Source of the DNA: an uncultured Thermoprotei archaeon
Lineage (GTDB): Archaea > Thermoproteota > Thermoprotei > Thermofilales > B15-G2
Direction of reading: 5' to 3'
DNA length: 64,000 nucleotides
Assembly: GCA_965367815.1 (NCBI GenBank)
Contig: CBDUKN010000013.1
Span: 1-64,000, forward strand
Part shown: positions 10,024 to 12,067 of the stretch, piece by piece
How positions within the stretch are numbered: the first letter of the stretch is position 1
How the letters are laid out: each line of letters opens with the position of its first letter
The notes under the pieces: model-generated
Seen by the model: only the letters and a program-made list of their open reading frames with translations
Database searches by the model: none
What the model was told of the DNA's origin: nothing
Position numbers and translations under genes: made by a program

Positions 10024-10695
10024 ATGGGCTACGTAAAGTGGCTTGGACATGCTGCCTTCGAAATACTGCTAGACAACAAAATAATATTAATTGACCCTTG
10101 GCTTTCAACTAATCCTAAAGCTGCATGTAAACCTGAAGACATAAAGAGCGTCAATATAATACTTGTGACACACGACCACGGAGACCACCTAGGAGATGCT
10201 GTAGAAATAGCAAAAAGAACAGGAGCATGCTTTGCGGGGATCTATGAGCTAGTTAATTTCATGAGAGAAAAGGGTGTTGAAAAAACAATAGGAATGAATA
10301 TCGGTGGAGAAGCCGAAGTCGAAGGTATTAAAATAATACTCGTTCCGGCATATCATTCAGCTGAAAGAGGTAGAGAAGTCGGATACATAGTGAGAGGAAA
10401 AGAAGCCAGTGTATATCATGCAGGAGACACAGGGCTATTTTACGACATTAAGCTCTACGCAGAGCTCTACCCAATAGACATAGCATTAGTTCCAATAGGA
10501 GGACTATTCACAATGGATCCTTATCAGGCGGCAAAATTCATATCCTTATTTAAACCTAAAGTAGCTATACCAATGCACTACGGAACTTTCCCGCCAATAG
10601 ATAAAAATCCAGAGGACTTCGCTAAGGCAGTAAAAGAACTCGGCGTAGAAACAAAAGTAGTGATACTTAAACCTGGAGAGAAATATGAATTTTAA
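10024..10695 (+). CDS. Metallo-beta-lactamase fold metal-dependent hydrolase (UPF0173)
   Basis: WLGHA, THDHGDH, YHAGDT, PMHYGTF; ATG at 10024 follows GGGGG RBS. Confidence 0.92.
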   Translation: MGYVKWLGHAAFEILLDNKIILIDPWLSTNPKAACKPEDIKSVNIILVTHDHGDHLGDAVEIAKRTGACFAGIYELVNFMREKGVEKTIGMNIGGEAEVEGIKIILVPAYHSAERGREVGYIVRGKEASVYHAGDTGLFYDIKLYAELYPIDIALVPIGGLFTMDPYQAAKFISLFKPKVAIPMHYGTFPPIDKNPEDFAKAVKELGVETKVVILKPGEKYEF

Positions 10696-10703
10696 GTAGC
10701 AAG

Positions 10704-10727
10704 AATTAGTGTTTTTAATCACTAATT
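10704..10727. terminator. AT-rich inverted repeat between convergent transcripts
   Basis: AATTAGTG-N8-CACTAATT containing a T-run, downstream of both the hydrolase gene and the minus-strand ncRNA. Confidence 0.35.
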
Positions 10728-10747
10728 ATATTCAAGCATTATTTAGA

Positions 10748-10899
10748 GGAGCCCCGTCTTTGGGGGCTTAGTAATCTTAATTATCTGAATTGAATGTAAT
10801 AAAGACATCACTTTATTGGGATTGCTGAGTTCTTAAAAACCCGGCACTGTGCACTTAATAGTACGCCGAATAATGCCCCACTATCCCCGACGGGGCGCC
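10748..10899 (-). ncRNA. Unclassified structured ncRNA with terminal bulge-helix-bulge (predicted circular RNA precursor)
   Basis: 5' GGCGCCCCGUC-GGGG-AUA-G pairs with 3' C-CCCC-AAA-GACGGGGCUCC; internal hairpins; BRE/TATA (GAAAACTTTATATG) about 25-30 nt upstream. Confidence 0.7.
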
Positions 10900-10921
10900 G
10901 ATATAATTATTGTTTTACACT

Positions 10922-10935
10922 CATATAAAGTTTTC
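10922..10935 (-). promoter_or_regulatory. BRE/TATA promoter of the BHB ncRNA
   Basis: Minus-strand GAAAAC-TTTATATG at the typical archaeal distance from 10899. Confidence 0.6.
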
Positions 10936-10944
10936 TCAGAACAG

Positions 10945-11211
10945 TTAATCTATCTTTTTGATAACTATTTTATTTACATTATATTTTAATAGAAGCTTTT
11001 TTATATAATTGATTTTTTCATGGTTTCCTCTAAAGAATATTGATGCTGTATCTTTCCAAGGCTCAAGTAGAACTACGCATATAAAATCCTTGCAAAATAT
11101 TAGGTACTCGTAGGCATGCCATCTCACAGGACACTTCATTTTCTTCAACTCATGAAAAAGCTCCAAGCGAGTTAAATAAAATCTGAGATCTTTAGGCATT
11201 ATTTTACTCAA
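10945..11211 (-). CDS. Hypothetical protein
   Basis: 88-aa ORF overlapping the stop of the DUF92 gene. Confidence 0.6.
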   Translation of the reverse strand: MSKIMPKDLRFYLTRLELFHELKKMKCPVRWHAYEYLIFCKDFICVVLLEPWKDTASIFFRGNHEKINYIKKLLLKYNVNKIVIKKID

Positions 11212-12067
11212 ATAGAAGTATATAGATGAGCACTGCTATTATTGCTCCTGAGAGCGTAGTCATTAGGTTTACCAGCTCATTGTTAACAAATTTTATTCCA
11301 CTTAAATATTCTGTTTTCATGCCACACTTGTGGATCTTCTTATCAGTTTCCTTATTGCACTTAGGGCACCAGTATTTAACTTGAATAGTTGCACCCAAGA
11401 AGCTATCTATTTTCTCTGCAATAGACCCAGAGAGGAATGTTACTATGAAGATTGATACCGGGTCTATTGCACTCTGCGGCGGAGAAATATACTGGTACAA
11501 GGCAGCTGAAATGATAGCTATGAATAATGCTCCTAAGAAGGATCCTAAAGTACCCAGCTTAGTTACTCCACCTGAAGTTCCTGGAGGAACTTTTTTCTTA
11601 AGATTTGTTATTAATACTGGGTCTTCTTTTGATAGAAGTCCTAGTTCTACCGCCCAGGTATCGGCGTCAGCTGAGCTCACTGCGCCGAGGAATGCTACCG
11701 TTAATATATGAGAAAGCTGATTCGGGTCTGGCCATAGTAGAATATTGTTTTCGTACATGCCTTTAAGTAGCGCAGCTATGCCAGCAATGCCTCCAGCGCA
11801 TACCACTTGTAGTGCCGTTCTACCACTTTTCTTTTCAGCTGCACCCTTTTCTTCCTTTGCTCCGTACTTAACTTTAGTTAAAATACTAGAGCTGAGGAAA
11901 AAGCTCATAATAATTAAAAAACAGGCGGGGCTCCCGGCAAAAGTCAATATACCTACAATAAGCCCGGCAATGAGGCCGGAAAGACTCACGAAGTTCTTCT
12001 TATACGAAGGGATGCCTATTGCCAAGGTAACTATGAAGCCTAAGAGCAGGTTTTGGTACAAATCCAT
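11204..12067 (-). CDS. DUF92/TMEM19-family membrane protein
   Basis: GRTALQV, ADTWAVELG, PGTSGGVT, DSFLGATIQ, NNELVN. Confidence 0.9.
   Translation of the reverse strand: MDLYQNLLLGFIVTLAIGIPSYKKNFVSLSGLIAGLIVGILTFAGSPACFLIIMSFFLSSSILTKVKYGAKEEKGAAEKKSGRTALQVVCAGGIAGIAALLKGMYENNILLWPDPNQLSHILTVAFLGAVSSADADTWAVELGLLSKEDPVLITNLKKKVPPGTSGGVTKLGTLGSFLGALFIAIISAALYQYISPPQSAIDPVSIFIVTFLSGSIAEKIDSFLGATIQVKYWCPKCNKETDKKIHKCGMKTEYLSGIKFVNNELVNLMTTLSGAIIAVLIYILLFE

Follow-up and report, generated by a model that had tools for sequence, protein, structure and literature searches.

A putative RNA gene between ORF88 and a convergent hydrolase gene

The window, which here means the whole 64,000-nt stretch of DNA that we analysed, comes from the genome of an uncultured Thermoprotei archaeon (G000) and carries an RNA element of the bulge-helix-bulge (BHB) type at 10748-10899 on the minus strand. 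The element lies 48 nt past the stop codon of an 88-aa open reading frame, ORF88, and abuts the 3' end of a convergent gene for a metallo-beta-lactamase-fold hydrolase. The features upstream of the element are as follows:

10945-11211, minus strand: upstream 88-aa ORF (ORF88), overlapping the end of the DUF92 gene; context, not an established part of the element
10920-10937, minus strand: BRE/TATA promoter, GAGAAAAC TTTATAT GAG, 9.8 bits against the tRNA-promoter matrix

A spacer of about 20 nt separates the BRE/TATA element from the stem. We scored this promoter with a weight matrix derived from the tRNA genes of the same genome, of which 43 were usable; their promoters have an A+T fraction of 0.9-1.0 at -28 to -24. 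At 9.8 bits it outscores all but 1.4e-4 of genome positions and lies above the tRNA promoters' 75th percentile of 8.0, and the best promoter register sets the predicted start at 10899, 3 nt ahead of the stem. The matrix is a general promoter model, with thousands of genome sites at or above 8 bits, and the score is therefore to be read as that of a good promoter, rightly placed, and not of a special promoter class. A TATA-like element was present at an equal distance in all three aligned homologs. Thus, the proposal of an earlier, sequence-only reading that a BRE/TATA promoter precedes a dedicated gene was borne out, both by the tRNA-like register of the element and by its recurrence in the homologs.

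The element is conserved within one genus

Besides the copy in G000 we found two distinct homologs, one in a metagenome-assembled genome of a sister species (G001; the sequences L002, L008 and L015 are the same and were counted with it as one homolog) and one on a metagenome contig (L014). Among 41 genomes of the order, blastn found the RNA in two, G000 and G001. A covariance model, R1, recovered the same two from these 41 genomes together with a 23.7-bit match in G033, the alignment of which has no central helix and which we judged to be noise, as we did an extra 19.9-bit partial match in G001. A second model, R2, applied to 120 genomes of the class, returned, besides G000 and G001, a partial match of 21 bits in G047. 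A pattern scan of genome contigs gave six stretches, namely the G001 record and five bacterial chance matches. In viral contigs, a first pattern scan produced at least 103 chance matches, and model R2 was negative in 100 of these; the two matches of a second scan were one unrelated phage sequence. By the searches described here the RNA family is confined to one genus, with members in 2 of the 120 class genomes and on one metagenome contig. The L014 copy was retrieved through the neighbouring 88-aa protein and not through the RNA sequence, and its BHB therefore counts as an independent observation.

Between species the RNA is 73-81% identical; the spacer upstream of it reaches 54-60%, and third codon positions in three neighbouring genes 39-64%. 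Identity so far above that of spacer and third codon positions points to purifying selection acting on the interior of the RNA as well as on its stem. The trailer downstream of the stem showed no conservation across the homologs, and a strain variant found in four metagenome DNA runs differs only at 10779, 10843 and 10898. Judged by its conservation and its promoter, the element is a selected, stand-alone RNA gene with a promoter of its own. The same comparison bears on the idea that the locus holds a decaying, functionless remnant, for instance a BHB intron left behind when a host RNA gene was rearranged. A remnant would suit the narrow distribution of the family, and mobile or rearranged BHB-flanked RNA genes are described for Crenarchaeota in PMC4731332; the retained promoter and the excess of identity over third codon positions argue for purifying selection instead, and make decay a very improbable account.

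All three copies of the RNA lie between ORF88 and the convergent gene, and in G001 the last base of the stem adjoins the stop codon of the latter. In a word-based protein search ORF88 gave two clusters and looked orphan-like. With a profile search the family turned up in 62 of the 401 genomes sampled from the phylum, and since this widens the family well beyond the RNA we dropped the argument from co-restriction and rejected ORF88 as a co-restricted partner of the RNA. An AlphaFold model of ORF88 (pLDDT 86.5) matched no fold in the PDB at E <= 0.001; the closest was the C-terminal domain of CPSF73 at E = 0.08. Its matches in the ESM Atlas were to unnamed Thermoproteota clusters only (0.86), and those in NCBIfam were noise. 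In 28 other genomes of the order the DUF92 loci had neither ORF88 nor the hydrolase within 1.5 kb, and synteny is thus unusable in those 28 genomes. At 29 further ORF88-family loci we found no comparable downstream BHB, the best scores being 19-31 compared to 35 here, on a scale on which control strands and flanks reach 19-48.

This arrangement raises the question of an action in cis, in which the element, instead of being a separate gene, would belong to its neighbours: it would form a structure or terminator in the 3' UTR of the DUF92-ORF88 operon, or act antisense to the convergent hydrolase gene. The short distance to the ORF88 stop codon, the contact with the 3' end of the convergent gene and the adjoining stem and stop codon in G001 are what such an element would show. 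Against it stand the element's own BRE/TATA promoter at tRNA-like spacing in all three homologs, an interior conserved far above the spacer next to a trailer that is not conserved, and the other 29 ORF88-family loci that do without a comparable element. We consider a role in cis highly improbable.

The transcript ends form a relaxed BHB motif

The predicted precursor can be divided into the following parts, the cut sites being placed by the rule described below:

10883-10899, minus strand: predicted 5' leader ('5' exon'), comprising the start at about 10899, the outer strand, GGGG and the two bulge bases 10884-10883
10896-10889, minus strand: 5' strand of the outer helix, GCCCCGTC, read from the sequence
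10888-10885, minus strand: GGGG of the central helix, with its partner CCCC at 10765-10762
10884-10882, minus strand: 5' bulge ATA, 3 nt, lying 3' of GGGG
10760-10882, minus strand: the 123 nt predicted to be excised, presumably as the circular product; cut rule checked on tRNA introns
10881-10766, minus strand: AU-rich interior of about 117 nt between ATA and CCCC
10765-10762, minus strand: CCCC, 3' strand of the central helix, followed by the AAA bulge; helix invariant in 3/3 homologs
10761-10759, minus strand: 3' bulge AAA, always 3 nt and reading AAA, AAT or AGA across the three homologs
10758-10751, minus strand: 3' strand of the outer helix, GACGGGGC, read from the sequence
10751-10759, minus strand: predicted start of the 3' trailer, the last bulge base 10759 and the outer strand 10758-10751

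In G000 the outer helix is an 8-bp GC stem, GCCCCGTC/GACGGGGC, which leads into the GGGG/CCCC helix. The two 3-nt bulges lie on opposite strands, each 3' of its own strand of the central helix, as in a BHB. This geometry of GC stem, GGGG/CCCC helix and two 3-nt bulges had been described in the sequence-only reading, and we found its elements as stated there in G000, with the geometry kept in all three homologs. An additional remark, that both bulges end in A, applies to G000 (ATA and AAA) and fails in the sister species G001, where the 3' bulge is AAT.

Across the homologs the outer helix keeps 7-8 bp and remains rich in G-C; one of its pairs has changed on both sides (T-A to C-G), another has lost both of its bases, and an inner pair has changed from T-G to C-G. 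The GGGG/CCCC helix is invariant. The bulge pairs of the three copies, ATA/AAA, AAA/AAT and ACA/AGA, differ in their letters and are always 3 nt long. In the three-copy alignment 41 of 41 pair cells are paired; shifting the partners by 1-3 columns leaves 39-62% paired. Covariation is non-significant with three sequences, in which most pairs are invariant: values as high as those observed arise in 165 of 500 shuffles. Thus, where homologs with covarying BHB stems had been proposed as a check, the motif itself is kept in 3/3 copies and the covariation falls short of significance (n=3).

The minimum free energy fold of 10748-10899 (ViennaRNA) has -47.7 kcal/mol (z = -3.24; 1 of 200 shuffles was as good) and includes the outer helix, the central helix and the 3-nt 3' bulge. 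The inner flanking helix reaches 2 bp at most, with a predicted probability of about 0, and falls short of the strict hBHBh' form; the motif, with its inner helix nearly absent, is therefore classed as the relaxed hBH/BHL form. In the outer and central helices 11 of the 12 pairs are G-C, compared to 33% GC in the interior of the RNA, and GC-rich ends around an AU-rich interior suit a signal for processing better than they suit a structural RNA. A rule placing cleavage after the second nucleotide of each bulge gives a predicted piece of 10882-10760, which measures 123 nt in G000, 125 nt in G001 and 121 nt in L014. Joining of the 'exons' would leave no more than a hairpin of about 23 nt with the trailer attached. 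The expectation that the exons amount to a small hairpin holds, since the flanks consist of the stem alone and show no conservation beyond it.

The CCCC run of the precursor has two possible partners, the GGGG of the leader, which makes the BHB, and the piece's own GGGGC. In a thermodynamic model the central helix has a probability of 0.63 in G000, about 0.8 in G001 and 0.35 in L014, where a competing GGGGGC/GCCCCC pairing is favoured (0.63). The same data can be read as a linear small RNA of about 150 nt, whose stem protects its ends at heat, whose bulges are incidental and which EndA neither cuts nor turns into a circle. This is an unlikely reading that has to be taken seriously: few stem pairs vary, which leaves the BHB register without statistical proof; an alternative fold of outer stem, internal loop and GGGGC/GCCCC is predicted to dominate in L014; and chance BHB geometries of nearly the same score exist in open reading frames, as described below. 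A stem that merely protects, however, needs neither an adjoining GGGG nor two bulges of exactly 3 nt that are kept in 3/3 copies while their letters change. Furthermore, the EndA of this organism accepts tRNA motifs that are equally relaxed, so that a motif of this kind would be hard to keep uncut.

The genome encodes a splicing machinery that probably accepts relaxed motifs

This last point came from an analysis of the splicing enzymes and tRNA introns of the genome. Two genes with an EndA domain (PF01974) are present, at C4:141353-141607 and C4:137336-137584, together with a gene for RtcB at C8:73046-74353. According to PMC4731332, the two-subunit, heterotetrameric EndA has the most relaxed BHB recognition, and enzymes of this family require no more than one 3-nt bulge on a 4-bp helix; read against that account, the two subunits indicate what is presumably a crenarchaeal heterotetramer with relaxed specificity. 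We then tried the geometry and the cut rule on the 18 analysable intron-containing tRNAs that ARAGORN predicts in the genome. The intron borders were recovered exactly in 7 of the 18 and within 1-2 nt in 3 more, and were missed in 8. Among the 10 recovered tRNA-intron BHBs the inner helix has 0-2 bp in 7, and the 3' bulge begins with A in 9, as it does in the RNA gene. The caveat of the sequence-only reading that the inner helix is weak was therefore accurate as to the helix, the probability of which is near 0, and is largely answered by tRNA introns of the same genome that are equally weak in 7 of 10 cases.

A scan of the genome for a 6-bp outer, a 4-bp central and a 2-bp inner helix at a spacing of 15-400 nt yielded 4428 geometric matches. 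The RNA gene was the best of them and the only one to score 29/30. The three next-best matches scored 28/30; two of these sit within long open frames and probably arose by chance, while one is a perfect hBHBh' motif around a 24-nt intron in the gene for ribosomal protein uS5. Its place among the top matches shows that the scan does recover true substrates. The 28/30 matches in open frames show as well that geometry alone is weak and no proof, and on geometry alone the BHB exceeds chance only marginally. A 'mirror geometry' control of the scan is simply the opposite strand and hence uninformative.

The interior of the predicted piece is AU-rich and probably largely single-stranded

Within the predicted excised piece the following elements recur in the homologs or offer pairing partners:

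10875-10879, minus strand: GGGGC, which can pair with GCCCC at 10767-10763 (5 bp, invariant in 3/3) and rivals the BHB central helix
10851-10866, minus strand: hairpin P1, 4 bp, the first TTAAG lying in its 8-nt loop; one pair is G-T, G-C or A-T
10802-10814, minus strand: invariant block AAGTGATGTCTT, the AGTGAT of which can pair with ATTATT at 10874-10869
10858-10854, 10836-10832, 10815-10811, 10780-10776 and 10771-10767, minus strand: five T-W-A-A-G-like sites, positionally conserved

The three predicted circles contain 3, 4 and 5 copies of TTAAG itself. The helices kept in 3/3 copies are GGGGC/GCCCC, the 6-bp long-range ATTATT/AGTGAT helix, which shows one one-sided change among the homologs, and a single 4-bp hairpin; no others were kept. 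Of the three to four interior hairpins proposed from the sequence, one 4-bp hairpin thus survives comparison, next to the two longer-range pairings, and the rest do not. The predicted circle has 38% GC, or 33% without its ends. The stable RNAs of the genome lie far higher, with a median of 70.7% GC for tRNAs (65-77%), 67.5% for 5S rRNA and 66.7% for SRP RNA, compared to 38.6% for the genome; GC-rich stable RNAs are a signature of thermophiles. The low GC of the predicted circle therefore suggests that it would be mostly unpaired at growth temperature.

After the predicted excision the GGGGC/GCCCC helix would close the junction in a hexaloop. When folded, the linear excised piece forms this helix equally well, and because the helix needs no ligation, ligation does not 'complete a fold'. 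The claim that circularisation completes a fold as in a permuted SRP RNA was consequently not upheld, and we saw no sign of a permuted known RNA. A search for targets in trans, by blastn-short of the circle against the genome, gave as its best match 14 nt at E = 1.1, which is at chance level.

The interior could in principle be a message. In a circular or permuted messenger, a reading frame would cross the ligation junction and encode a peptide of 32-37 residues. G000 and G001 share an ATG-started frame over the predicted junction that ends at the same conserved TAA, the indels within this frame sum to multiples of three when those outside it do not, and the interior is AU-rich and mRNA-like. 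In L014, however, two codons are followed by a stop, and an additional G alters the frame at the junction. Codons compared between G000 and G001 comprise 15 that are identical, 2 with synonymous and 15 with amino-acid-changing differences; over the three codon positions the differences are distributed 10/8/9, without a third-position excess or any coding signature, and there is no spaced Shine-Dalgarno motif. A messenger is, on this evidence, hardly credible.

Searches for known RNA families were negative as well. Rfam at gathering thresholds gave no match in the whole window, and at E <= 10 the interval 10400-11300 returned three noise matches only (snR161, mir-95 and PYLIS_1). ARAGORN found no tRNA in the window, and the Rfam tRNA model was also without a match. 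An SRP RNA was rejected, having no Rfam match at E <= 10, with a canonical Archaea_SRP at C34:3661-3993 (164.8 bits); so was 5S rRNA (RF00001), for which there was no match here, the genome's 5S gene lying at C18:56371-56490. RNase P RNA (RF00373 and RF02357) gave no match either, and alignment to the RNase P RNAs of three relatives was no better than alignment to shuffles. Together, the Rfam, ARAGORN and RNase P results agree with the earlier impression of an RNA with no tRNA, 5S, SRP or RNase P signature. A C/D box sRNA was also rejected, with the junction included in the search: the C box (RUGAUGA) occurs in 1 of 3 circles and the D box (CUGA) in 0 of 3. The RNase P RNA reading, for its part, had been prompted by a missing RNase P RNA.

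A predicted circular RNA and its relation to known EndA products

From the promoter, the motif and the enzymes of the genome we propose the following route. Transcription would start about 3 nt before the GC-rich stem formed by the transcript ends, and this stem, the 4-bp GGGG/CCCC helix and the two 3-nt bulges would constitute a relaxed BHB. A two-subunit EndA would cut after the second base of each bulge, RtcB would close the released piece of 121-125 nt into a circle, and the 17-nt leader and the trailer would be by-products. The AU-rich circle would be held by one GGGGC/GCCCC helix and would display mostly single-stranded conserved blocks and five UWAAG-like sites. It could then act as a covalently closed, exonuclease-resistant platform that binds protein or short RNA targets, with covalent closure taking the place of structure as protection. 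That EndA cuts and RtcB circularises this RNA, which would add an unrelated family to the EndA/RtcB circular RNAs such as the Thermoproteus SRP RNA, is the reading we prefer, with a probability of roughly 0.6.

The closest known case, described by Plagens et al. (2015; PMC4731332), is the SRP RNA of Thermoproteus tenax and T. uzoniensis, a permuted RNA that a heterotetrameric splicing endonuclease cuts out and RtcB presumably ligates into a circle. As that paper describes it, the SRP RNA shares with the present element a stand-alone gene, a TATA box of its own, a short leader and trailer that form the BHB, a product that is the piece between the cuts (predicted cuts in our case) and a crenarchaeal host with many tRNA introns. 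The two also differ. Ligation restores a functional loop in the Thermoproteus RNA, which is recognisable as an SRP RNA, whereas the RNA described here has no Rfam homology and a canonical SRP gene lies elsewhere in its genome; here, in contrast to the Thermoproteus RNA, the predicted junction falls in a hexaloop and the closing helix forms unligated as well. The Thermoproteus RNA is GC-rich and structured and ours has 38% GC, and the Thermoproteus circle was shown experimentally (PMC4731332) whereas ours is predicted from the sequence. The suggestion of an undescribed class thus divides into two: the route of biogenesis was already shown for the Thermoproteus SRP RNA (PMC4731332), while the RNA family is new.

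A search of the literature, with supplements (the usual place of circRNA lists) outside its scope, found no stand-alone BHB-flanked gene for an otherwise unknown RNA. In the literature covered, the EndA substrates beyond tRNA and rRNA were the Thermoproteus SRP RNA (PMC4731332), a Haloferax 5' UTR (PMC7714728) and the cbf5 mRNA (PMC2738675). More tentatively, and at somewhat less than even odds, the element may be the first dedicated archaeal circular-RNA gene that is not derived from a known RNA. The tRNA-splicing machinery would in that case serve purely to make circles, an AU-rich and largely unstructured RNA would survive only because it is endless, next to stable RNAs of about 70% GC, and the five UWAAG sites would make it a multi-site platform or sponge in trans for a protein or for RNAs. 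A conserved gene with the excised piece as its sole evident product would make EndA and RtcB a general archaeal route to circular regulatory or scaffold RNAs, beyond the repair of rearranged housekeeping RNAs. The value of the case is limited by an organism that is uncultured, a family found in one genus and a gene known from its sequence alone; the element does offer studies of crenarchaeal EndA specificity a short, well-defined natural candidate substrate, in which a relaxed BHB flanks an insert of 123 nt.

Other known products of EndA are circular rRNA intermediates, tRNA introns and the Haloferax 5' UTR intron (PMC7714728, PMC12558985). As with the rRNA intermediates, a long-range stem formed by the flanks carries the BHB, and EndA cleavage and ligation, both predicted here, lead to a circle; those intermediates, however, are kilobase-sized, are later reopened and are part of an operon, whereas the gene described here has about 150 nt and its circle is the presumed end product. 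Excised circular tRNA introns share their motif and enzymes with the predicted circle, fall in the same size range and can serve as functional RNAs (PMC12558985): the tRNA-Trp intron is a C/D box sRNA that is circular when excised (PMC12558985). In contrast to that intron, there is no tRNA here, the exons would form only a hairpin and C/D boxes are not conserved. The circular C/D box sRNAs made by an Rnl3-type RNA ligase (PMC9014305) are, like the presumed circle, small non-coding archaeal RNAs, but in the account given there they are independent of a BHB and have as their defining feature the C/D boxes, which the present RNA lacks.

As a candidate EndA substrate that is neither tRNA nor rRNA, the element also resembles the 5' UTR intron of Haloferax HVO_1309 (PMC7714728) and the cbf5 pre-mRNA intron of Crenarchaeota (PMC2738675). 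In HVO_1309 and cbf5 the exons are the product, whereas the RNA gene described here has no coding or conserved exon on either side. A BHB intron of the messenger kind occurs in the same genome, in the uS5 gene.

BHB introns outside the small RNA locus

The genome holding the window (G000, an uncultured Thermoprotei archaeon) and a sister-species metagenome-assembled genome (G001) carry an intron within a ribosomal protein gene, and G000 also carries introns in its tRNA genes, at the following positions:

G000 contig C8, 62590-62613 (positions 591-614 of retrieved stretch L022), + strand: 24-nt intron in the gene for ribosomal protein uS5, with a perfect hBHBh' motif
G001, about 1575-1610 of retrieved stretch L197: copy of the uS5 intron
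G000 contigs C4, C8, C9, C11, C18, C22 and C31: tRNA intron and BHB observations

The uS5 motif consists of the stem GCGCCAG/CTGGCG, the central helix ACGG/CCGT with bulges ATA and AAG, and an inner helix of 6 bp. Exon 1 ends in the residues ...RQTD, while exon 2 matches the Pfam families Ribosomal_S5, from profile position 17 on, and S5_C; without splicing, the frame runs into a stop codon within the intron. The sister-species copy has the same stems as that of G000 but a different loop. Protein genes of archaea seldom carry BHB introns, the classic example being cbf5. Among the 44 tRNA genes of G000, ARAGORN called introns in 19, one of which (on C11) is a wrap-around artefact. Several more tRNAs of this genome show BHB geometry at non-canonical sites, e.g. 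tRNA-Gly on C9, with a 25-nt insert.

RNase P

In a set of 41 genomes from the order, 34 carry an RNase P RNA. Models RF00373 and RF02357 detected none in G000, which is 99.4% complete, or in G001, and the protein Rpp29 (PF01868) was likewise not found. G000 encodes a PIN_5/TIGR03875 protein, a family that includes HARP, the protein-only RNase P:

G000 contig C2, 69693-70223, - strand: PIN_5/TIGR03875 protein gene

The tRNA promoters of G000 lie at a constant distance, with the predicted transcript start at or beside the mature 5' end. Ribonucleoprotein RNase P may be absent from the lineage.

The upstream neighbour and strain variation

The small RNA gene has the following upstream neighbour:

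window 10945-11211, - strand: 88-aa ORF

This ORF has no Pfam family and seemed an orphan in a word-based search; sampling 401 genomes of the phylum turned up its small-protein family in 62. The AlphaFold model is confident (pLDDT 86.5) and runs helix, four strands, helix, strand; a PDB fold search with this model gave no significant match. Sediments of hydrothermal and marine origin have yielded metagenome runs that contain a close strain relative at window 10686-11012. Over 451 nt, the related metagenome strain differs from the window at 9 positions, three of them (10779, 10843 and 10898) in the RNA region.
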